A stretch of 63,869 bases of DNA, filler included, from Deltaproteobacteria bacterium (lineage in GTDB: Bacteria > JACQOV01), in the NCBI GenBank assembly GCA_016202395.1. It is 8 parts of 8 records of this genome, joined end to end, with 100 filler letters (N's around TTAATTAATTAA, not from the genome) between each part and the next. Parts side by side here need not be neighbours in the genome. Positions count along the whole stretch, not along the records: positions 6,632 to 17,066 come from JACQOV010000001.1; 7 more parts are not named here. The stretch is one strand, 5' to 3'. This document shows, piece by piece, positions 4,062 through 62,535 of the stretch. The notes beneath the pieces were generated by a model. It did no database searches and was not told the DNA's origin. It saw only the letters and a program-made list of their open reading frames with translations. The stretch's first letter is position 1. Each line of letters starts with the position of its first letter. Made by a program: the position numbers and the translations under genes.

Positions 4062-4611
4062 GGCCCGCGGAAGGAGCAAGACGTGGAGAAGAGAACCTAC
4101 GCCGATCGTCGGCTGAACATTATTGCGGCTGTTAGAAGACGTCGCAAAAAGGTTCGACAGATGGCTCTTGAGTACAAGGGCAATCGGTGTAGTCGTTGCG
4201 GGTATGATCGATGTGCTGAAGCGTTAGAGTTTCACCATTTAGATTCTTCCGAGAAAGACTTCGGGATTTCCGATAGAGGTTATACTCGAAGTTGGAGGAA
4301 AATTCGTGAAGAATTGGACAAATGCGTGTTAATCTGCGCGAATTGCCATCGTGAGCTCCATTCCAATACGCAGCATTCGTGGGAAACCATGAACGAAAAA
4401 TCGGGTGAAATCAGGGAAGCCGCAGCGCGTAATGGTGGCGGTAATCCTGAGCGAAGTCTGGCGAAACGCAACACCGTAGCCAGAAACGTGCAGAGACTAG
4501 GGTTTGAGGAGCGTTACCAATAAAAACCCACAAGCGCCCGACCTCTAATCCCGCTAATCGCAGGAAGAGGATGAGATAGTCCAGGCCTTAACGAAAGTTG
4601 AGGAGGTCCTG
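4062..4611 (+). mobile_element. Group I self-splicing intron in the tRNA-Asn anticodon (between positions 35 and 36)
   Basis: Exon ends in U that can pair U.G in P1; intron ends in G. P3 TCGGGTG(4401)/CGCCCGA(4535); P4 TCAGG/CCTGA; R element GCAGAGACTA; S element GAGATAGTCC; P7 GACTA/TAGTC; P9 CCTTAAC-GAAA-GTTGAGG. Confidence 0.92.
4083..4523 (+). CDS. Intron-encoded HNH (homing) endonuclease
   Basis: CxxC...LEFHH...CxxxCANCHRELH zinc-finger HNH signature; SD AAGGAG at 4071-4076; lies wholly inside the intron. Confidence 0.88.
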   Translation: MEKRTYADRRLNIIAAVRRRRKKVRQMALEYKGNRCSRCGYDRCAEALEFHHLDSSEKDFGISDRGYTRSWRKIREELDKCVLICANCHRELHSNTQHSWETMNEKSGEIREAAARNGGGNPERSLAKRNTVARNVQRLGFEERYQ

Positions 4612-6531: not shown

Positions 6532-6631
6532 NNNNNNNNNNNNNNNNNNNNNNNNNNNNNNNNNNNNNNNNNNNNTTAATTAATTAANNNNNNNNNNNNN
6601 NNNNNNNNNNNNNNNNNNNNNNNNNNNNNNN
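6532..6631. other. Artificial contig spacer (also 17067-17166, 26371-26470, 46420-46519, 49477-49576, 59755-59854, 62436-62535)
   Basis: Identical 100-nt blocks of N with a central TTAATTAATTAA that stops all six frames. Confidence 0.99.
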
Positions 6632-12121: not shown

Positions 12122-12269
12122 TAGCAGGTTGTTGACAAATCCTTCTCTCGCAAGAAAATTGTCATGCCCGCGAAAGCGGGCATCCAGTAACATATTGAAA
12201 AGACTGGATTCCCGTTTTCACGGGAATGACGGCAAAAAGCCTGAGAATTAGTTAGTCAACAAACTGTTA
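12122..12269. repeat. MITE-like element with 15-bp imperfect terminal inverted repeats enclosing a GTCATNCCCG REP pair
   Basis: TAGCAGGTTGTTGAC ... GTCAACAAACTGTTA; inner GTCATGCCCGCGAAAGCGGGCATCCAG / CTGGATTCCCG...GGGAATGAC (12161-12230). Confidence 0.7.
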
Positions 12270-12665
12270 GGCTAAAGCGACGATGCCGGATCGGTGAATT
12301 CGTTCATCCACGGTTAAAACTCGGAGCCCATGACATCGAGCGGTAGCCACGATCAATTGATCTGCAGGATCCTTGTGGAAGTGGGGGCCTAAACGGCTGC
12401 TTTCAATAACGATTCGCGCAGAGAGGGGGATCATCCAGATCCCTGGGTCTTCTTCGAGTTCACCAAACCACTCGTCTAAAGAGAATTCGGGTCGAATCCG
12501 TCCGATCTCAGCCAGTTTTGCAATCTCCCACAGTGAGATAATCGAGACGGCTAAGCCCTCTTTCAGTTCTTCCGATTGAATTTTTTGAGCCATCTCAGGG
12601 GTAAGATCGGGCGCATCAAGATACCACCAAAGCAATACATGGGTATCCAGTAGTGGGGGGGGCAT
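12267..12665 (-). CDS. VapC/PIN-domain toxin
   Basis: LLDTHVLLW, SLWEI, HKDPADQLIVATA; TGATG overlap with the antitoxin. Confidence 0.9.
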   Translation of the reverse strand: MPPPLLDTHVLLWWYLDAPDLTPEMAQKIQSEELKEGLAVSIISLWEIAKLAEIGRIRPEFSLDEWFGELEEDPGIWMIPLSARIVIESSRLGPHFHKDPADQLIVATARCHGLRVLTVDERIHRSGIVALA

Positions 12666-12931
12666 CAGGAGCTTGCCTCCCAACTGGAGGCCGATGACCA
12701 ATGGATGATATCTCCTTTAAGGGTCGCCAACCCTTTTAGGGCTCCTCGGTGGCTCCCTCGAACTCTCCCTATCGGGATGACCCGAGCCACAGGCTCCGAT
12801 TTTTTGGTGATAATCCACTCCTTCCCTTTCCTACGGGTTTCCTCCAAGAGTTTTAAGCAACGGGCCTTAAATTCGCTCACTCCAATGGTTTCTTGATGTT
12901 GGATCGCTGCGGAACCTCGCTTTGTCATCAT
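12665..12931 (-). CDS. Phd/YefM-family antitoxin
   Basis: I..SEFKA.CL.LL......ITK...PVA. Confidence 0.88.
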   Translation of the reverse strand: MMTKRGSAAIQHQETIGVSEFKARCLKLLEETRRKGKEWIITKKSEPVARVIPIGRVRGSHRGALKGLATLKGDIIHWSSASSWEASS

Positions 12932-12987
12932 AGAATCCAGGATAGCAAAGACCTATTGATTAGTCAAGTGGTCAAAATGGTGAAATC

Positions 12988-13064
12988 TGGGGTCAGTTTT
13001 AAGTATTTAAGTAACGATTCAGAGGATGGGGTCAGCGTTACTTAAATACTTAAAACTGACCCCA
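12988..13064. repeat. Perfect 29-bp inverted repeat (GGGGTC-type REP)
   Basis: TGGGGTCAGTTTTAAGTATTTAAGTAACG / CGTTACTTAAATACTTAAAACTGACCCCA with a 19-nt spacer. Confidence 0.9.
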
Positions 13065-13137
13065 TCCCCTGTTAAGTTCCCTTGACAGGGTTTTCTAGTT
13101 CCTCTATCTATTACAATCGGTTTTATGGGCTAGGGGG

Positions 13138-14253
13138 GTGAGCCTCATGGGGCTTCAAAGCGGTAAAAAAAAAGGGGCCTTCTTCGTTGGTATCGTTGTG
13201 TTGAGCTACAGCCTCTCGGAGGCGGGGGTCACCTACCTTCACTCGGACCATCTTAACTCCTCCGTCATTCACACCGATTCTCTCGGTCGGGCCGTTGAGG
13301 TTCAATCCTTTACCCCTTTTGGGGAAGGAGGGGAGGGGTACACCGATCAGGAGTACGATTCCTCGGCAGACCTGCAATCCAACCACGCTCGGTATTACGA
13401 TCCTGTTCTTTCCCAGTTTGTGAGTGTCGATCCCGTTCAAGGGAATCTGCCTTACGCTTACGCCAACAACAACCCCGTCATTTTCGTAGACCCCGATGGG
13501 AACAACCCTTTGCTTATTCCTGTGGTCACGGGGATCGGATTTGTGGCCTTTGACTACGGGATGGCGAAGTGGACAGGGGAAGATGTTTGGTATACGAAAG
13601 GAGATGCGGCGGCCGCTTTCTTCACAGGAGCGCTGATGGGGTTTGGAGGGATGGGAATCGTGGCGTTATCGACCCGCTTGGGACTTTCAGGTGTGGGAGC
13701 AGCTGTTTTTCAAGGGGGGGCTAACTACGTCAATATTACGGTCAATAGGGCTGCCAGAAATATGGTGTATCGTGGAGAGAGACCTACAGAGGCTTTAGTA
13801 GAGAGTGCCCTCTGGCCTGCCTATCTCGTTTTAGCCCCCGTGGATTTTGTGGCAGCGCTAGGGTCTTATGTGGGTCGATACCATTTAGGGCCCGCACTCG
13901 AATCTTGGGGGTTTGTGCTTGACGATCCGGATGAGGATGTCCCTTCCATAGAAAACCTGATCGCGCAGTATCACGGCTCTTATCAAGCCGGTCGATTCCC
14001 TTTTGGAGATTTGACAGGTCGCAACCCTTTGCTTAAGCGTTTAGATCGGCTTGCCCATTTTCATCAGCGTTTGAGCGGTTCTCAAAAGGAGTTAACGTCG
14101 ATTTTGGATGGGTTGCGCAAAGGGGAGGTTGGGGAGTTATCAAGGGAAGATCAGATCGCTTTAGAAGAGGACATTCAACAGAGACTGGAAGGGATCGATT
14201 TTTTGATGGGGCAGATACAGCAGGATGTGACGAAGATCACTCATGAACTCTGA
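13138..14253 (+). CDS. Signal peptide + Rhs repeat-associated core + hydrophobic/coiled-coil C-terminal domain (mini-Rhs 1)
   Basis: SEA|GVTYLHSDHL, PFGE, ARYYDP, NNPVIFVDPDG. Confidence 0.85.
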   Translation: MSLMGLQSGKKKGAFFVGIVVLSYSLSEAGVTYLHSDHLNSSVIHTDSLGRAVEVQSFTPFGEGGEGYTDQEYDSSADLQSNHARYYDPVLSQFVSVDPVQGNLPYAYANNNPVIFVDPDGNNPLLIPVVTGIGFVAFDYGMAKWTGEDVWYTKGDAAAAFFTGALMGFGGMGIVALSTRLGLSGVGAAVFQGGANYVNITVNRAARNMVYRGERPTEALVESALWPAYLVLAPVDFVAALGSYVGRYHLGPALESWGFVLDDPDEDVPSIENLIAQYHGSYQAGRFPFGDLTGRNPLLKRLDRLAHFHQRLSGSQKELTSILDGLRKGEVGELSREDQIALEEDIQQRLEGIDFLMGQIQQDVTKITHEL

Positions 14254-14299
14254 ACAACAAGATGATGTGAAATTTGGGGTCAGTTTTATAGCTAGGGGG

Positions 14300-15370
14300 G
14301 TGAGCCTCATGGGGCTTCAAAGCGGTAAAAAAAAGGGGGCCTTCATTGTTGGTATCATTGTTAGTATCATTGTGTTGAGCTACAGCCTCTCGGAGGCGGG
14401 GGTCACCTACCTTCACTCGGACCCTCTCAACTCCCCTCTGATTGAAACCAATGAGGTCGGTTGGGTCGTTGGGGTTCAATCCTTTACCCCTTTTGGGGAG
14501 GGAGGGGAGGGGTACGTCGGTCAGGAGTACGATTCCTCGGCAGACCTGCAATCCAACCACGCTCGGTATTACGACCCCGTTCTCTCCCAGTTTGTGAGTG
14601 TCGATCCCGTTCAAGGGAATCTGCCCTACGCTTACGCCAACAACAGCCCTATCGTTTTCATCGATCCGAATGGGCGCGATCCAGAGGAGCCTGGTGTCAG
14701 CAGTATCGATGTCGACATCAATGATTGGTTCCTCACGCCGGCGATGCGCGAGAAAGTGGAATCGTTTATACTGGAAAACCATCGATGGCCCGATGATGAG
14801 GAATTTTCCCAGATGAAGGATTTCCACGCCCTTGCGCAGACTCTGGTGGGGCTTTTGGCGGTGTGGCAAGTTTCGAAAGCTACGAAGGCTTTTGGAATGT
14901 CTCGCAAGCTTCAAGCGGCAGACATACAACGCATAAGAGATGTTTTTCGGGAAGTCGGAACCCTCGCTGAAACGATACGACGGACCGGATTCAGTGAGGG
15001 TACGGTACGGCAATACATTAGATCAGCGGGGATGAAGGCAAACAGAGTCGGGAGGTACCCCTCCATTACTAATGAGGAGGCCCTCTCTTTGAGAGAGAAA
15101 TATGCAGAATTGCAGTCTGTGTCGGCAGTGGCAAAGAAGACGGGACGCAGTCCTGTTACTGTCTGGGGATGTGTCATAGGGAAGATTGGCCCGGCGTTTT
15201 CAGAGGAGAAGATCAGCGCTATTCAGGCCGCGTACGCAGAGCTGAAGGATATTAACGAAGCGGCCAGACGCGTGGGCCTTCCCCCCAAGGCGGTTCGTCT
15301 GCATGTGGAGGATGCAGGAAAGGGAGTGGGCAGAAAAACATATGAGGACTTCGATGAATGGGATTTGTAA
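14300..15370 (+). CDS. Signal peptide + Rhs core + tandem HTH C-terminal region (mini-Rhs 2)
   Basis: 5' part nearly identical to mini-Rhs 1; NSPIVFIDPNG; three HTH-like units. Confidence 0.85.
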   Translation: MSLMGLQSGKKKGAFIVGIIVSIIVLSYSLSEAGVTYLHSDPLNSPLIETNEVGWVVGVQSFTPFGEGGEGYVGQEYDSSADLQSNHARYYDPVLSQFVSVDPVQGNLPYAYANNSPIVFIDPNGRDPEEPGVSSIDVDINDWFLTPAMREKVESFILENHRWPDDEEFSQMKDFHALAQTLVGLLAVWQVSKATKAFGMSRKLQAADIQRIRDVFREVGTLAETIRRTGFSEGTVRQYIRSAGMKANRVGRYPSITNEEALSLREKYAELQSVSAVAKKTGRSPVTVWGCVIGKIGPAFSEEKISAIQAAYAELKDINEAARRVGLPPKAVRLHVEDAGKGVGRKTYEDFDEWDL

Positions 15371-16463
15371 AAACCTTTTGGCCATAGCGTGTCTCCCGTT
15401 GTTTTGGGCGGGGGGAGTCCCTTCTCTTTGCGCTGCGGCGGCGCAGTTCTACCATCCCGATCATTTGGGTTCTGTAAATGTTAGCACCGATGAGGGCGGA
15501 GATCTTGGAGGGCTTTCCACCTACACCCCTTTTGGCGAAACTGTCATTGCGAGGGAGCGCAGCGACCGAAGCAATCTCCCAACCAACCATCTCTACACCC
15601 ACCAAGAACTGGACCGTGAATCCAGTCTCTACGATTACGGCGCTCGGTATTATGATCCCGCGCTTTCTCAATTTGTGAGCATCGATTTGGTTGAAGAAAA
15701 CCCCCCTTACGCCTATGCTTTCAACAATCCGATTATTTTCATTGATCCCGACGGCCGTGATCCGAAGATGTATAGTCCTGATATTTATCCGAGCGTTTTG
15801 GACTATCGCGCCGAGCATAACGGAGAGGACCCTCCTAATTCTCTGATTCAACAATGGCAAGAAGAGATTAGCCTCGAACGGGCGTTACCTGTTGTTCTCT
15901 TCGGCATGGTGGTTAAAAAAGGGGCGCGTCCCCATCCGAACCAGAAGGTGACCGATGAACAGGTTCAAGTGGCCTATCGAAGGACGCCGAACTCCTATGG
16001 GGTGGCGGCACAATTGGGGATTTCTCAACATACGGCCTGGCGCAGGTTAGCAAGTTTATTCGGGAAAGGTTACAGGCCTCGCGGCCAAGAGCCACGAACA
16101 GCCTTGGGCAAAGTTTATGAAGAGATCGCGGAGGCGGATGGGAATTTCAGCAAAGCGGCCAGAGAATTGGGTTATAAAAAAAGCGCTATCAGCTCACGAC
16201 TTGGAAACCAGAAAATGCTCGAGACGTTGAGAATACTGTTTCCCCCAGCTTCCCCATCGGCGAAGGGATTGGAGTGGGAACCCATACTTTCCGCTCTTAA
16301 GGAACAGCAGGGGAATGTTCGAGTGGTGGCCAGGCAATTTGAGGTCGACCCTGCAACGATTAGAGGTTGGATTGAAGCTCATTATAAGGGGGGACAGGAG
16401 CAGTTTCGCGTGGATTTTCCTCCCCGTCATGATTGGCGTTGGAGGAATCGAGATGCCAAATGA
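15354..16463 (+). CDS. Signal peptide + Rhs core + tandem Fis-like HTH C-terminal region (mini-Rhs 3)
   Basis: SD GAGGA before ATG 15354; AAA|QFYHPDHLGS, YGARYYDP, NNPIIFIDPDG; GNFSKAARELG and GNVRVVARQFEV. Confidence 0.85.
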   Translation: MNGICKNLLAIACLPLFWAGGVPSLCAAAAQFYHPDHLGSVNVSTDEGGDLGGLSTYTPFGETVIARERSDRSNLPTNHLYTHQELDRESSLYDYGARYYDPALSQFVSIDLVEENPPYAYAFNNPIIFIDPDGRDPKMYSPDIYPSVLDYRAEHNGEDPPNSLIQQWQEEISLERALPVVLFGMVVKKGARPHPNQKVTDEQVQVAYRRTPNSYGVAAQLGISQHTAWRRLASLFGKGYRPRGQEPRTALGKVYEEIAEADGNFSKAARELGYKKSAISSRLGNQKMLETLRILFPPASPSAKGLEWEPILSALKEQQGNVRVVARQFEVDPATIRGWIEAHYKGGQEQFRVDFPPRHDWRWRNRDAK

Positions 16464-16714: not shown

Positions 16715-17066
16715 ATGGCTCTGAAGTCTCGTTATTTGGTTCAAGCCGTTGTAGAGGACCTTCAGCAAGGCAAGATGGTCTTTTTAGGGGGACCCCGCCA
16801 AGTGGGTAAAACCACTTTTGCAACCAAGTTAGTTGCCCAAGGGTATCAGAGTCAGTATTACAATTGGGATCAAATATCCCAGCGGCGCCAGGCTTTAAAA
16901 GGTCTATGGCCAGCAGAAACAAAATTGATTATTTTGGATGAGTTTCACAAACATCCCAAATGGAAAACGTGGCTCAAGGGGGAATACGATACCTATAAAG
17001 ATCGATTTAAATTTATTTTGACGGGAAGCGCGCGATTAGATCTCTATCGTCGAGGAGGAGATTCCC
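16715..17066 (+). CDS. AAA+ ATPase (AAA_14/DUF4143 type), truncated at contig end
   Basis: GPRQVGKTT, IILDEFH, FILTGSA. Confidence 0.85.
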
Positions 17067-17177
17067 NNNNNNNNNNNNNNNNNNNNNNNNNNNNNNNNNN
17101 NNNNNNNNNNTTAATTAATTAANNNNNNNNNNNNNNNNNNNNNNNNNNNNNNNNNNNNNNNNNNNNAAATTTTTTTC

Positions 17178-19198: not shown

Positions 19199-19384
19199 CC
19201 CCTTTCCAATTCATTTTGATGGGGACACGATACTTTGATCTGGGGACACGATACTTAATTTAGAATTAAGTATCGTGTCCCCAGATCAAATCCCCAGATC
19301 AAAAATCGGGAGGCAGAGCCGTTTCCAACTCCACCCATCGGCTTCCCCTTCCTAGGCGGCCCCTTAGAAAGAGAAGCTCAAGGT
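19199..19384 (-). promoter_or_regulatory. Moco/Wco RNA motif (riboswitch candidate) with a REP insertion
   Basis: Minus strand GAGCTTC..CTAAGGG..GAAGCC-GATGGGTGGAGTTGGAAACGGCTCTGCCTCCCG...TTGGAAAGGGG directly before the moaA ATG. Confidence 0.75.
19213..19306. repeat. GGGGACAC-type REP cluster containing a perfect 27-bp inverted repeat
   Basis: 19234-19260 pairs with 19264-19290; related element at 33376-33424. Confidence 0.85.
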
Positions 19385-19435
19385 TCTAATGCGCTGAAAC
19401 ATAGTCCAAGAAGCGAGTAACCTCCATGATAAGGA

Positions 19436-26111: not shown

Positions 26112-26689
26112 ATTTGGCAAATCTTGCGAAATATAAAAAAGTCTCTATTAATTCATGGACTTATGATTTTTAACTGAAACGCTAACCTCTTCTAATTGCC
26201 TAAATAGTGGGCAGCTCTGCTCAATAAATAAGCTGAGGAGATGATTTATATCAGGGCACCTCTAAAAACTATGTTCGTGACGAAAAATCATGATCTGAGC
26301 CGAGACAAGGAGGATGAGCAAAAAGCCCGGAAACGTACCTAGAAGGTACGTTGAGGACTTTTTGTGAAATNNNNNNNNNNNNNNNNNNNNNNNNNNNNNN
26401 NNNNNNNNNNNNNNTTAATTAATTAANNNNNNNNNNNNNNNNNNNNNNNNNNNNNNNNNNNNNNNNNNNNGTTTGGCTTTGCTAACTGTCCCCACAGGGG
26501 TCGCTCTAGCAAATACGACCCACCTGGGGACAGGTAGCTTCGCAACCTGTCCCCAGGTTCGCCAAGAGGGGTACCCCAAAAATCTTGCAACGTTCGCTCA
26601 ACAAAAACATTCCCGTGAACTTTTCCTACCGATCTGATTCTAACTCTGTTGCTTGACACGCAGTTTTGAAAACAATAGCCTCGGGAGGA

Positions 26690-46285: not shown

Positions 46286-46523
46286 GGTTTTTCTCTTACT
46301 ACTTGGAGCGGAAAATATATGACACTTTGGCTGAGCCGATTTTGAGGCGAGACAAGGAGCGAGGACGAAGGCGTAGCCGAAGTGCTACGTCGAGGACGAG
46401 CGACGCTGTCGCAGCCCAANNNNNNNNNNNNNNNNNNNNNNNNNNNNNNNNNNNNNNNNNNNNTTAATTAATTAANNNNNNNNNNNNNNNNNNNNNNNNN
46501 NNNNNNNNNNNNNNNNNNNCGCC

Positions 46524-47624
46524 ATGAAGGTAAGGTTTGAAAAAATAGCGTTGTTGTCCTTGGTCTGTGCCATTTCCTGTCCAATGGCACGAGCGGAGGT
46601 GAGCTATGTCCATTCGGATCATTTGGGTTCGACGGCAGTTGTCAGCCATTCGACTGGTGCGGTTCAGCAGATCGAGCATTACAACCCATTTGGAGAGATT
46701 TTAAGGGGAGAGGAAAGAGGTGAGGGGGCGACGGCCCATCTCTACACCAACCAAGAGCTCGACCCCGAATCCGCTCTCTACAACTACGGCGCCCGGTATT
46801 ATGATTCCGCTCTTGCAAGATTCACCGCTCCAGATCCCGTTTTATCCGAACCTCCTTATGCTTATGTGGCGAACAATCCTGTGAGCTACACCGATCCCAC
46901 GGGAGAGCTCTTGTGGGATGTAGTGGATGTCGCTGTTTTTGTCATTAACTACAAAGCCTATCAGGACGATCCCACGACATGGAATGCCTTCTGGCTTGTC
47001 GTCAGTGGAGTGGGGCTGTTACCCGTTTTACCTTCCGGAGGATATTTTAATCCGAACGCGACTGCGGAAACTCTCGAAGCAACCATGGCCGTTGGAAACA
47101 CAATGGTGCAGGCTTTGCGGGTTGGAGCTAAGGGAGAAACTGCAACGGATCTGGTTGCTTCGTCGGCCGATTCCGCCGCGATGATCGGAAACTCCTCCAT
47201 GAGTTCTACGGGGGATGGAAAGAAGAGAGGTGAAGTCATTTCACTGGATAAGGCAAGGATGACTCGAGCTGTGAGGCAAGCGCAAATGGGGAGCGCTCGA
47301 GCGATGAAAGTAAAATCTTCTTTTACAGATTGGAGTGATAGGATCGCTCAGATGAGTAGATTGCAAGAGAGCAAAGAGCTTCGGTTGCTCTATAATGCTT
47401 CTCAAAATAGGGGTTTAATGGAAAAGATTACAGAGAATGCAAATTACTTCAGAGCGTTTATGGAAAGGGAGCCCATAACGGAACTCACCCCCCTTCAGCT
47501 TCCCGACGCGATTTCTGACGCGATTGAAGGGAGCCAACTGAGGATTCTTGACACGATGAAAAAAAAACAAGTCCCTTCTGCGGAGATTGGCAGGTTTTTA
47601 AATCAATTAGGCACGTTATTTTGA
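46524..47624 (+). CDS. Signal peptide + Rhs core + unknown C-terminal domain (mini-Rhs 4)
   Basis: ARA|EVSYVHSDHLGS, YGARYYD, NNPVSYTDPTG. Confidence 0.85.
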   Translation: MKVRFEKIALLSLVCAISCPMARAEVSYVHSDHLGSTAVVSHSTGAVQQIEHYNPFGEILRGEERGEGATAHLYTNQELDPESALYNYGARYYDSALARFTAPDPVLSEPPYAYVANNPVSYTDPTGELLWDVVDVAVFVINYKAYQDDPTTWNAFWLVVSGVGLLPVLPSGGYFNPNATAETLEATMAVGNTMVQALRVGAKGETATDLVASSADSAAMIGNSSMSSTGDGKKRGEVISLDKARMTRAVRQAQMGSARAMKVKSSFTDWSDRIAQMSRLQESKELRLLYNASQNRGLMEKITENANYFRAFMEREPITELTPLQLPDAISDAIEGSQLRILDTMKKKQVPSAEIGRFLNQLGTLF

Positions 47625-47673
47625 AATTGGGCGTAAACGTGAATAAGCGGGGTCCGGCTTCGGTAATTTATGC

Positions 47674-47781
47674 GTCATCCTGTGAAAACGGGAATCCCGT
47701 CATTCCCACGGAAGTGGGAATCCAGTGCTGGTTCCCCGCTTTCGCGGGGATGACGAATTCTCCCGTTTGCACGGGAATGAC
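47674..47781. repeat. Cluster of four GTCAT(T/C)CC-type REP units (two forward, two reverse)
   Basis: GTCATTCCCACGGAAGTGGGAATCCAG, CCCCGCTTTCGCGGGGATGAC etc.; same family as 12161-12230. Confidence 0.8.
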
Positions 47782-47825
47782 GGATGGGGGCCTTTTGCGG
47801 TCAACTTACAGATGAGGGTTGTTCA

Positions 47826-49022
47826 ATGATACGATGGAGTTTCATTTTTGCGTTGTGTTTTGGCATGGCTCATGCCGAGATGAGCTATGTCCATTCGGAT
47901 CATTTGGGTTCGACGAGTGTGGCGACGAACGAGGGTGGGAATGTTCAGCAAGTGGCAATCTATTCCCCTTACGGTGAGATTCTAACCCCTCACCTTTCAT
48001 CCTCTCCCCAAAGGGGAGAGGAAAGAGGTGAGGGGGCGACTCCCCATCTCTACACCGGTCAAGAGTTTGATGCCGAGGACGGTCTCCATTACTACGGCGC
48101 CCGATATTACGATCCCATGCTTTCTCGTTTTCTCAGTGTTGATCCAGTTTTCGATGGTTTTACCTCCTACGGTTATGTCGGAAATAATCCAATTTTATGG
48201 GTTGATCCCACAGGAGAGACAGCTAAGGACGCCGGCGATTTCCTTTATTGGTCCTTTATCTCTTTTGGGAGGACGATGACTTGGCAATCGGTTCCTCGCG
48301 ATCTCTCATTGAATACGGCCTCTCTTCAAGGCTATTCCTATGGCACGACCGCCGCGACCTTGCTTGGGATGATCATGAATTATACTGGAACGGGGGGGAC
48401 AGCTGCTGCTTTGGCTACGGGAGGTGGGGTGGTGGTGACTCCAGCTACTTTGACCCTCGCGGCCTATGGGACTACGGTGGTAATCAATGGAGCTAGGACG
48501 CTCTCAGAGCTGGGTTTAAGCTTATCAGAGGATACAGCAAGCAGTAGCGGCTCCGGTGGAGGGGAAGACGTTGGGGATGAAGATTCTTCGCAAATTCCAT
48601 TGGAGACTGTTCCCAATAATTTAAGGGATGCGAATGGTGTGGTTCGGGTCCCAACTACGGGTGGCGATCCAGAGTATGCGTTTCATGAGCGTAGCAGTGG
48701 TGATGGTGCAAGCCATAGGGATGTCGCTAGGCAGGCATTTGGAAGGCCCACAAGGGGTGCTTCGTACTATGGGCTCAGTGGTAAGAGCGGAAAGGTAACT
48801 TATTTAGGTCGGTCATCTGTTGGGGAAGGTCCGTCTCTTGAAGAGGCGAAACGAATAGTGGCTGATATGCAACGGCAAGGATGGATTAATGAACAATTCC
48901 TTGAGGTTATGACTGAAGATCGAACGGGATATAATCTCGGACCTCAATGGCCAACGCCAATGCGGAGCGCTAGTGGAAATTGGATGATGACAGTCGGAGA
49001 TTTTTTGAAATTAGGAGAATAA
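47826..49022 (+). CDS. Signal peptide + Rhs core + unknown C-terminal domain (mini-Rhs 5)
   Basis: SD GAGGG; AHA|EMSYVHSDHLGS, YTGQE.D, YGARYYDP, NNPILWVDPTG. Confidence 0.85.
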   Translation: MIRWSFIFALCFGMAHAEMSYVHSDHLGSTSVATNEGGNVQQVAIYSPYGEILTPHLSSSPQRGEERGEGATPHLYTGQEFDAEDGLHYYGARYYDPMLSRFLSVDPVFDGFTSYGYVGNNPILWVDPTGETAKDAGDFLYWSFISFGRTMTWQSVPRDLSLNTASLQGYSYGTTAATLLGMIMNYTGTGGTAAALATGGGVVVTPATLTLAAYGTTVVINGARTLSELGLSLSEDTASSSGSGGGEDVGDEDSSQIPLETVPNNLRDANGVVRVPTTGGDPEYAFHERSSGDGASHRDVARQAFGRPTRGASYYGLSGKSGKVTYLGRSSVGEGPSLEEAKRIVADMQRQGWINEQFLEVMTEDRTGYNLGPQWPTPMRSASGNWMMTVGDFLKLGE

Positions 49023-49159
49023 ATGGGGTCAAGTCGCGTGTTGCAGAATGGGGTCAGGCTTCGGATCCCATTGGTTTGCGGATTCGAATGCGATTTTTTT
49101 GAATAATAACGAGGGAGCCAAATTTTGTTCTTTGGCGAGTTGATATACTTCGTCTGAGA

Positions 49160-49396
49160 TCACAATTGAGGGATAAGATCTTGTTCGTTGGCCAACACGG
49201 CAGCATAAAACATACAGGCGTGGATGTCTTCGTCTGTAATAGGAGGGAACTCTTCCTTGATCTTTTCAGATGTCATGCCCATAGCCAGCGCTTCCAGAAT
49301 AACATAAACTGGGGTACGTGTTCCTTTGATGCAAGGCTTGCCATGTTGGGTTTTTGGGTCAGTTACAATGTGCTCAAGGATCTCTTCGTGTTGCAT
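49160..49396 (-). CDS. DUF433 family antitoxin-like protein
   Basis: I..DP....GKPCIKGTR.PV..IL..LA.G. Confidence 0.9.
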   Translation of the reverse strand: MQHEEILEHIVTDPKTQHGKPCIKGTRTPVYVILEALAMGMTSEKIKEEFPPITDEDIHACMFYAAVLANEQDLIPQL

Positions 49397-49730
49397 ATAA
49401 GTAATGATAACGGAAGTAAACTTGGAAGTAAAGAAGGAGAATGGGGTCCGGCTTCGGCATTTTGAATAATAATGAGNNNNNNNNNNNNNNNNNNNNNNNN
49501 NNNNNNNNNNNNNNNNNNNNTTAATTAATTAANNNNNNNNNNNNNNNNNNNNNNNNNNNNNNNNNNNNNNNNNNNNGGGTCAAAAATCTTGCGAGTGAAG
49601 CGAGAAAAAACATCCCCGTGAACTTCTTCCACCGACAAGTCCAAAAATCTCTTGCGTGGGCGAGACCCTAAATTCCCTTGACGATAGAATGAAACAACGG
49701 TAGGCTGGACTTTCCGTTAAAGGAGGCTCA

Positions 49731-59591: not shown

Positions 59592-59854
59592 AAAGTAGGT
59601 TTTTGATAATAGGATCCCCTCCCAAATTTGTAAAGCAGCCGCCATCGCTTTATCCACCGGAATGAACTTGTTCACACAAGAAATTTTTGACTGATTCAAT
59701 TGGAAAAGTTCACGGGAATGTTTTTTCTCGCTTCACTCGCAAGATTTTTGACCCNNNNNNNNNNNNNNNNNNNNNNNNNNNNNNNNNNNNNNNNNNNNTT
59801 AATTAATTAANNNNNNNNNNNNNNNNNNNNNNNNNNNNNNNNNNNNNNNNNNNN

Positions 59855-62419: not shown

Positions 62420-62535
62420 TTAAATCGTTTTTATANNNNNNNNNNNNNNNNNNNNNNNNNNNNNNNNNNNNNNNNNNNNTTAATTAATTAANNNNNNNNN
62501 NNNNNNNNNNNNNNNNNNNNNNNNNNNNNNNNNNN

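Follow-up and report, generated by a model that had tools for sequence, protein, structure and literature searches.

Five genes with a common front half

The stretch of DNA analysed here, called the window throughout, comprises 63,869 nucleotides from a bacterium labelled Deltaproteobacteria (GenBank assembly GCA_016202395.1). It joins eight contigs of a metagenome-assembled genome (MAG) through fillers made of 44 N, the 12 letters TTAATTAATTAA and a further 44 N (at 6532-6631, 17067-17166, 26371-26470, 46420-46519, 49477-49576, 59755-59854 and 62436-62535), and adjacency of contigs across these joints is meaningless. Five of its genes encode proteins of one architecture, in which a hydrophobic leader runs directly into a Rhs repeat-associated core and the core is followed by a tail that differs from copy to copy. 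Genes 1-3 lie on the contig at 6632-17066, genes 4 and 5 on a separate contig of 2957 nt (46520-49476). The features are listed below, the names plug and payload anticipating the roles proposed later for these segments.

13147-14253, + strand: gene 1, open reading frame (ORF) of 368 amino acids (aa); TIGR03696 at 57.9 bits
13147-13224, + strand: hydrophobic leader of gene 1 (MGLQSGKKK...SEA)
13225-13500, + strand: last YD hairpin and putative Rhs core plug of gene 1, ending DPDG
13501-14250, + strand: putative payload of gene 1, with three hydrophobic segments and a helical tail; no Pfam family
13117-13485, copy at 14280-14659, + strand: duplicated 5' module (ribosome-binding site, leader, plug), 337/383 identical by BLASTN (88%); repeat families D1-D3
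14309-15370, + strand: gene 2, ORF of 353 aa; TIGR03696 at 56.2 bits
14309-14398, + strand: leader of gene 2
14399-14674, + strand: putative plug of gene 2
14675-15367, + strand: putative payload of gene 2, with three weak helix-turn-helix (HTH) units, the HTH matches lying below Pfam cut-offs
15354-16463, + strand: gene 3, ORF of 369 aa; TIGR03696 at 66.0 bits; GAGGA 5 nt before the ATG at 15354
15354-15443, + strand: leader of gene 3
15444-15755, + strand: putative plug of gene 3
15756-16460, + strand: putative payload of gene 3, an array of three HTH modules
46524-47624, + strand: gene 4, ORF of 366 aa; TIGR03696 at 72.0 bits
46524-46595, + strand: leader of gene 4
46596-46904, + strand: putative plug of gene 4
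46905-47621, + strand: putative payload of gene 4, helical
47826-49022, + strand: gene 5 (P0001), ORF of 398 aa; TIGR03696 at 79.8 bits; GAGGG 7 nt before the ATG
47826-47876, + strand: leader of gene 5
47877-48215, + strand: putative plug of gene 5
48216-49019, + strand: putative payload of gene 5; no Pfam family

Start codons (13147, 14309, 15354, 46524 and 47826) were chosen from ribosome-binding sites and alignment of the paralogues. That of gene 1 is backed by the ribosome-binding site GGGGGGTGAG and by alignment with gene 2, and that of gene 5 is the same in the gene call of a public collection. The ATG of gene 4 lies 4 nt from the contig edge, leaving its 5' end open; it aligns with the starts of the relatives P0005 and P0006.

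Genes 1 and 2 are spaced by 55 nt without overlap, genes 2 and 3 overlap by 17 nt, and the 201 nt between genes 4 and 5 are filled by palindromes resembling repetitive extragenic palindromic (REP) elements, with a REP-like inverted repeat at 47697-47783. No gene-like ORF of 60 aa or more lies between the array genes of either cluster. The original prediction, made from this DNA alone, had stated that the five genes share one architecture and that no immunity ORF fits between them, and both statements are borne out: the cognate immunity gene that directly follows a canonical Rhs toxin has no counterpart here (spacers of 55, -17 and 201 nt). A 22-nt motif at 12980-13001 is found again before gene 2 (14267-14288).

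At the nucleotide level, genes 1 and 2 agree to 88% over a segment that opens 30 nt ahead of the ATG and closes immediately before the codons for DPxG; beyond it they are unrelated. Following DPxG, the tails of genes 1-5 measure 250, 231, 235, 239 and 268 aa, respectively, and show no BLASTP similarity among themselves at E≤0.01, so that the payloads do differ between copies, as had been claimed. A conserved N-terminal part, a sharp break and unrelated C-terminal domains among paralogues together make up the pattern of a polymorphic toxin, in the sense used in the accessible portion of PMC3482391.

Core, leader and predicted fold

All five proteins match TIGR03696 above its curated cut-off of 32.5 bits (56.2-79.8 bits, E values from 1e-15 to 2e-22). 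According to the available part of PMC10684867, the catalytic motif of the Rhs core is DPxG-x18-DPxG, with two catalytic aspartates, and in Tse5, where the same two aspartates are catalytic, the chain is cut four residues after the second. Both aspartates of this protease motif are invariant in the five proteins (D98, D118, P119, G121). The chains hold neither a canonical Rhs cage of about 1000 or more residues nor a TcC-type N-terminal RHS-repeat half-cage (about 650 residues), and none of the five gives an RHS_repeat or YD-shell Pfam match.

The leaders end in SEA, SEA, AAA, ARA and AHA, in each case 2-3 residues before the Y/F-x-H-x-D motif, and the statement that different leaders meet the core at the same point therefore holds for all five. 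By a crude rule, a basic n-region, a hydrophobic h-region and small residues at -1 and -3 are present in every one, which indicates a leader-like segment and would be consistent with export. The Cys residues in the leaders of genes 3-5 lie outside any lipobox, and the proteins were accordingly not taken for lipoproteins. A run of nine A occupies the KKK codons of the gene 1 leader (13187-13195) and one of eight A the corresponding region of gene 2 (14349-14356); these are possible slippage tracts, for which no length variant was seen among the metagenome contigs examined.

Across leader and core, the ratio of non-synonymous to synonymous substitution rates (dN/dS) is 0.44 for genes 1/2, 0.40 for genes 3/4 and 0.29 for genes 4/5, values that point to purifying selection on this part of the protein. 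Because of these ratios, and because the arrangement recurs in relatives, leader plus core appears to be a selected family with its own ribosome-binding sites.

An AlphaFold2 (AF2) model of the gene 4 product places residues 25-110 in beta hairpins with a predicted local distance difference test (pLDDT) score of 84-96, the tail being helical and of low confidence. When superposed on the C-terminal plugs in solved Rhs, TcC and teneurin structures, the modelled hairpins give alignments of 80-114 columns with root mean square deviations of 1.6-5.4 Å. The plug is thus predicted to fold as a single chain; modelling of the core by itself was among the checks that the original prediction had proposed.

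Repeats also occur within this conserved part. REP-like palindromes stand in frame in the loop that links the last YD hairpin to the core in gene 5 (47985-48043) and gene 3 (15543-15576). That of gene 5 has arms of about 23 nt and encodes TPHLSSSPQRGEERGEGAT, and the loop is retained at the protein level in relatives P0002-P0008; that of gene 3, 34 nt long, is covered to a summed contig depth of about 800, its flanks to about 10, and shows many loose ends in the DNA contigs of four groundwater metagenome runs. In contigs of runs X1, X2 and X4, position 15658 (gene 3 core) is linked through 12 letters to 13416 (gene 1 core) or 14590 (gene 2 core); such contigs represent either recombinant arrangements or assembly cross-overs between paralogous cores.

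Relatives of the short proteins

When proteins of about the same length were searched with gene 5, 182 matched; the 120 listed were classified as follows.

Leader directly before core: 23
Short, without leader: 19 (P0009-P0011 among them, whose genes were called from internal start codons)
Longer N-terminus: 50
Motif not found: 28

Inspection by eye would add P0012 and P0082 to the leader-before-core class. The nearest listed relatives, of 329-403 aa, come from MAGs labelled Deltaproteobacteria and are 53-68% identical over the first third; several share one contig and at least six, judged by accession range, one MAG. Long proteins (698-2000 aa) reach at most 47% identity to the core of gene 5, as against 53-68% within the short clade. 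Scans of genome and metagenome contigs yielded, among the matches listed, generic Rhs loci at no more than 50% identity and no close window-clade relative. A profile of the window clade matched 4 of 301 genomes from the phylum of G001 at E≤1e-28.

The leader is not a general property of short Rhs frames. The 157 loci examined, from a wide range of taxa, contain 146 ORFs with a core, of which 19 are short, and in none of the 19 does a leader precede the motif; the leader-plus-core form therefore belongs to particular clades and is not the usual short Rhs ORF. This recurrence, in the 23 listed homologues and in 23 of 24 short genes of the two genomes described below, together with the dN/dS values and the ribosome-binding sites, upholds the earlier contention that the window genes are not decayed fragments.

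A tree of core segments was built from 121 rows (all 51 short proteins and, out of 212 long ones, the 70 with the highest scores) and 120 columns, with Shimodaira-Hasegawa approximate likelihood ratio test (SH-aLRT) supports and a midpoint root. The window clade forms one group (support 92) and is sister (83) to the plug clade of genomes G123 and G113 (support 100), while a leader-plus-core clade of gammaproteobacterial type is separate (support 96). A fused protein of 2094 aa with its own core, P0261, has a shell 40% identical to the split shell of G123 and a core that nests among the split plugs, from which it would seem that fusion and fission have gone both ways. The possibility that the window loci are 3' ends of long Rhs genes, which the original prediction had named as telling against it, is accordingly answered in part: no closely similar long core was found (47% identity or less), but a fused long protein, P0261, does exist in the sister clade.

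A core-less shell that ends where the short proteins begin

G123 and G113 are genomes of another phylum than that of the window organism. Both are rich in TIGR03696 matches and have a shell of a type without a core.

G123, 4.1 Mb: 29 TIGR03696 matches; 5 long frames (1875-3477 aa), 23 short frames (232-413 aa) and one 61-aa fragment
G113, 5.7 Mb: 31 TIGR03696 matches; 14 long frames and 17 short frames
G123:C1 operon, + strand, first gene: shell at L168:4819-10191, a 1790-aa protein with leader, SpvB, FG-GAP, TcdB_midN and RHS repeats; no core match
G123:C1 operon, + strand, after the shell, in order: a putatively exported immunoglobulin-like (Ig-like) protein; two small, putatively exported paralogues; three candidate plug-cargo genes, one of them at L168:13126-14244

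In 23 of the 24 short G123/G113 genes the reading is the same as in the window, a leader and then directly (A/V)EY(R/H)FYHPD. The short genes of G123 form tandem arrays in which neighbours overlap by 4-10 nt and no other gene intervenes. The contig G113:C5 has the gene order of G123:C1, with identities of 59% for the shell end, 39-43% for the Ig-like protein and 46-50% for the small proteins; shell N-termini of G113 are found at two contig ends. The accessory genes between shell and plug-cargo genes occupy L168:10191-13184 (G123:C1) and L176:577-4516 (G113:C5), and encode an Ig-like protein of 648 or 963 aa and two small paralogues of 166 and 185 aa without a Pfam family. These accessory proteins could be assembly or targeting parts.

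The end of the G123 shell (residues 1784-1790) aligns 0-12 residues before the YxHxDHLGS motif in nine full-length BC fusions, for example at position 1660 against a motif at 1670 in P0161 and at 1527 against 1536 in P0152. Since the shell stops at the motif of the fused BC proteins, the split falls exactly where the mature short proteins begin.

The two halves were also submitted to complex prediction, as shell residues 1000-1790 and residues 40-170 of a neighbouring plug. The pair scored 0.89 and the best of three controls 0.00. The threshold of the measure admits 58 of 80 solved complexes but also 2 of 110 mismatched pairs; contact agreement between runs was at least 91% and the pLDDT of the partner at least 82. 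In the predicted complex, strand pairing joins the end of the shell (last strand, 1780-1788) to the start of the plug (first strand, residues 40-49). This docking may reflect the likeness of the split halves to solved Rhs/TcBC cages and is no proof of binding.

A second form of split is suggested by a search with a core profile hidden Markov model, in which 12 of 240 long proteins lacked a core: the G123 shell, seven shells of DUF6531 type and four more whose ends lie away from the junction. The seven DUF6531-type shells are putatively exported, measure 1196-1332 aa and share the terminal strand ...Y-[IVL]-x-L-x-D/N-x-P-V-x-V..., and the gammaproteobacterial-type leader-plus-core clade, which includes two Dyella species, starts with the next strand, TVTYVYTDPQGTP. 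Shell end and cargo start are adjacent in fused proteins (1296 and 1302 in P0277, 1582 and 1587 in P0142). The class of G605, represented by genomes of 0.7-1.8 Mb, gave no match. On these alignments a second, DUF6531-type split form appears to exist.

A split cocoon as the favoured interpretation

We lean, by a small preponderance, towards reading the five window genes as plug-and-cargo subunits of a split Rhs/Tc-BC cocoon. A Sec-type leader would carry each protein across the inner membrane. The mature N-terminus would then supply the last beta strand of the YD spiral, and the next 100 or so residues of Rhs core would form the plug that seals the cage and bears the aspartyl autoprotease, with a hypervariable payload of 230-270 aa behind it. 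A separate exported shell without a plug of its own would provide the rest of the cage and be completed by strand pairing with the plug, so that the payload would come to lie inside, cut off after DPxG. One shell might in this way accept any of many cargoes. The missing immunity genes fit such a scheme, since, as in Tc-like toxins, the payload would never be active in the cytoplasm of its producer.

The outcome for the original prediction is mixed. Its description of the proteins as shell-less is probably wrong for the working protein, given the core-less shell in relatives, and of its suggestions we favour that of a shell encoded by a separate gene and loaded in trans: relatives possess a putatively exported, core-less shell that ends at the junction and docks in silico. 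The stand-alone YD shell for which it had proposed a search turned up in G123/G113, but not in the window.

Several observations weigh against this interpretation. There is no YD-repeat shell in the 63.9-kb window, nor any homologue of the accessory genes, and a shell in this organism is pure inference by analogy with a sister clade in another lineage. That lineage is distant: the LepA protein of this organism is 71% identical to that of G327 and 67% to those of G004 and G001, and only 66% and 62% to those of G113 and G123. The sole link between the window genes and the split system is a quick 120-column tree whose key fork has a modest SH-aLRT support of 83%. The co-occurrence of shell and short family is itself weak, each being present in 2 of 301 sampled genomes, the same two, which are possibly related; and the window-clade profile scored no higher than 119 bits in any genome sampled from the phyla of G001 and G004 (301 each) or the class of G327 (4). 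Even in G123 most arrays (C95, C36, C9 and C45) are not beside the shell gene, and as G113 also encodes 14 fused BC proteins, each complete with a core, its short genes could have some other function.

Other difficulties concern the proteins themselves. The first DPxG lacks its Gly (and in gene 3 also its Pro), and the motifs are spaced by 16-17 residues rather than 18, though the mosquito SGS1 core has the same deviant first motif and spacing. The signal peptides of the original prediction survive as leader-like segments in all five proteins, but the crude rule is unspecific, also flagging 14 of 43 other window ORFs of at least 150 aa, mostly membrane proteins and lipoproteins. As the payload follows the plug in the chain, its entry into a pre-formed shell after Sec export presents a difficulty. 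Lastly, none of 14 window-clade payloads (the five of the window and those of nine nearest relatives) matches a Pfam toxin family, and two are HTH arrays.

The families of TcA (PF18276 and PF03538) were found in neither G123 nor G113, and in none of 14 control genomes either.

Payloads

The best characterised payload is that of gene 3, which matches HTH_1 (29.6 bits) and HTH_Tnp_ISL3 (27.7 bits), both above Pfam cut-offs, and is modelled by AF2 as three tri-helical units with pLDDT 74-93. A full-library search for its relatives gave 19 matches, among them a core-bearing orthologue (P0242), stand-alone tandem-HTH proteins (P0243, P0246) and two proteins, P0244 and P0247, in which a leader-like N-terminus is followed by 4-6 tandem HTH repeats. 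P0250 likewise carries 4-6 tandem repeats (HTH_8) after an internal membrane-like segment. Foldseek gave no match for the gene 3 payload at E≤0.001, the top non-significant hits being tandem HTH DNA-binding domains. Exported or membrane-bound HTH arrays may be a wider, unexplained class.

Genes 1, 4 and 5 have hydrophobic segments soon after DPxG, and their payloads match no Pfam family; there was no usable ESM Atlas match for the payloads searched, gene 5 among them. Toxin domains do appear in related clades: one Scabin-like and one Gln_amidase domain among the payloads of the 23 G123/G113 genes, and Colicin_D, Peptidase_M91 and NucA/NucB in the gammaproteobacterial-type clade.

Alternative readings

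The strongest competitor, which we nevertheless judge unlikely, makes the five proteins stand-alone secreted effectors. The leader would export them, the core of about 100 residues would fold or oligomerise alone as a self-cleaving release module (compare HINT and ZU5), and the cage-free payload would be soluble or insert into membranes. The hydrophobic segments of genes 1, 4 and 5 could so insert unaided, the window has no shell, and most G123 arrays lie far from the shell gene; moreover, Sec-only ('T2SS', type II secretion system) polymorphic toxins with short conserved N-terminal domains are a recognised class in the parts of PMC3482391 and PMC10684867 available. AF2 folds the plug confidently as a single chain, although that confidence may merely mirror the model's knowledge of whole cages, and the core of solved structures is part of cage wall and plug, as described in the accessible text of PMC8765631. 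A free module would also have no need of the coincidence that three clades put leader cleavage within a few residues of the same strand boundary, nor would it account for a core-less shell that ends exactly at that boundary and shares an operon with plug-cargo genes.

The identity of genes 1 and 2 stops at the core end, a classic mark of C-terminal displacement, and this raises the alternative, to our mind quite improbable, of orphan cassettes, a silent reservoir that would recombine through the core into full-length rhs or BC genes and whose leader-like N-termini would be functionless. The metagenome contigs that join the gene 3 core to those of genes 1 and 2 could be taken in the same sense, G113 offers 14 fused BC genes as possible recombination partners, and orphans of Streptococcus suis without a signal peptide are described as undeliverable in the part of PMC12704120 to hand. 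A functionless leader, however, would hardly be present in all five window genes and in 23 of 24 G123/G113 genes, as against none of the 19 short core ORFs of other taxa, nor would silent cassettes be expected to have ribosome-binding sites and dN/dS of 0.29-0.44. The typical setting is missing too: there is no rhs gene in the 6.5 kb upstream on the contig of genes 1-3 (the contigs being short), no long protein has a core more than 47% identical, and the immunity genes that typically come after orphans are absent.

For genes 2 and 3 alone, membrane-tethered regulators, with a periplasmic core, a stop-transfer anchor after DPxG and a cytoplasmic HTH array freed by cleavage, are brought to mind by the DNA-binding type of these payloads, each with a short hydrophobic stretch and then Lys/Arg, and by the combination of membrane segment and HTH_8 repeats in P0250, but we give this very little credence, as a 19-residue scan finds no membrane-type segment after the core in either, the stretch in gene 3 is only about 11 residues long, the cleavage site would lie on a side of the membrane from which the HTH array could not be freed, and genes 1, 4 and 5 and the toxin-domain payloads of relatives are left unexplained.

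Comparison with known systems

The split-cocoon interpretation has its closest parallel in the Tc BC cocoon (Photorhabdus TcdB2-TccC3; Yersinia entomophaga YenB with YenC1/C2/C3), in which the cage is made of two polypeptides and the C subunit has a Rhs core, an aspartyl autoprotease and a hypervariable payload. The SpvB, FG-GAP, TcdB_midN and RHS repeats of the G123/G113 shell are those of TcB, and the nearest long relatives of the window cores are, by Pfam content, mostly of BC type. TcC contributes about 650 residues of cage wall, whereas the C-like subunit here would be one hairpin and a plug, about 100 residues, the B-like subunit (1790 aa in G123) bearing the rest. Further differences are the Sec-type leaders on both halves and the hosts, which here are uncultured groundwater bacteria. 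Tc toxins, too, have no immunity genes. In Yersinia entomophaga one B subunit packages C subunits from distinct loci, several alternative C subunits encoded far apart serving one B, to judge from the accessible portion of PMC11067744. The most economical account of our observations is accordingly the known logic of TcB with alternative TcC, with differences in the position of the split, the small C-like part and the leaders on both halves.

Two other exported families are partly similar. WapA (Bacillus, Streptococcus) likewise uses a signal peptide to export a Rhs-family toxin, and its core cleaves off the C-terminal toxin; unlike the window proteins, it is a whole cage of more than 2000 aa in one chain, with an immunity partner. 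MafB of Neisseria resembles the window genes in its leader, a conserved module of 100-300 aa, a swappable C-terminal domain and multi-copy arrays, but the conserved module (DUF1020) is unrelated, immunity genes stand after each toxin and there is no cage.

Rhs orphans (Enterobacteria, Serratia and the wapA loci of Streptococcus suis) are also short ORFs made of a core end and a variable tail, with an identity break at DPxG. As far as the available text of PMC12704120 goes, they lie downstream of a full-length gene, have neither start nor signal peptide and are followed by immunity genes. The window genes, in contrast, are equipped with ribosome-binding sites and leaders of their own, lack immunity genes and are preceded by no rhs gene on the contig.

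Gene neighbourhood and other features of the window

Upstream of gene 1 lie DUF885, HAD and VapBC genes and a gene which we take to be ThyX-like. The flanks of the arrays hold a VapC (PIN)/Phd-YefM pair (12267-12931, - strand), a truncated AAA_14 ATPase gene (16715-17066) and a DUF433 gene (49160-49396), the usual content of variable regions. A perfect 29-nt inverted repeat upstream of gene 1 (12988-13064) has a contig depth of about 100, against about 10 around it. Elsewhere in the window are a molybdenum cofactor (Moco) riboswitch (19276-19395) before a moaA-like gene, a group I intron (4334-4603) and a signal recognition particle (SRP) RNA (1241-1339).

Significance

Enclosure of the payload in Rhs and Tc proteins is thought to come about through a single chain, or two large half-cages, folding together. 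Naturally split Rhs/Tc cocoons may depart from this: an exported plug of about 100 residues would be a universal docking and sealing module, one shell would be charged outside the cytoplasm with dozens of cargoes, HTH arrays included, and separation at this one strand boundary would have evolved on two or more occasions, in TcB-type and DUF6531-type proteins. We rate this wider proposition as having a little short of an even chance. No title or abstract in the literature searched concerned a naturally split Rhs or BC protein with plug-only cargo, or proteins of leader and core alone, though the supplementary tables of PMC3482391 might list the form; the accessible parts of PMC3482391 and PMC11435725 make no mention of it.

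If the proposition is true, cage loading and sealing would be possible in trans and after export, and the smallest part of the core sufficient for docking and self-cleavage would be defined. The many short leader-bearing proteins annotated as 'RHS repeat-associated core domain-containing' would be explained. The non-enzyme payloads (HTH arrays), taken with the absent immunity genes, make one ask what kind of cell is being targeted. Toxin repertoires, finally, would be read differently: the 4.1 Mb of G123 would then encode a single split shell along with 23 candidate cargoes.

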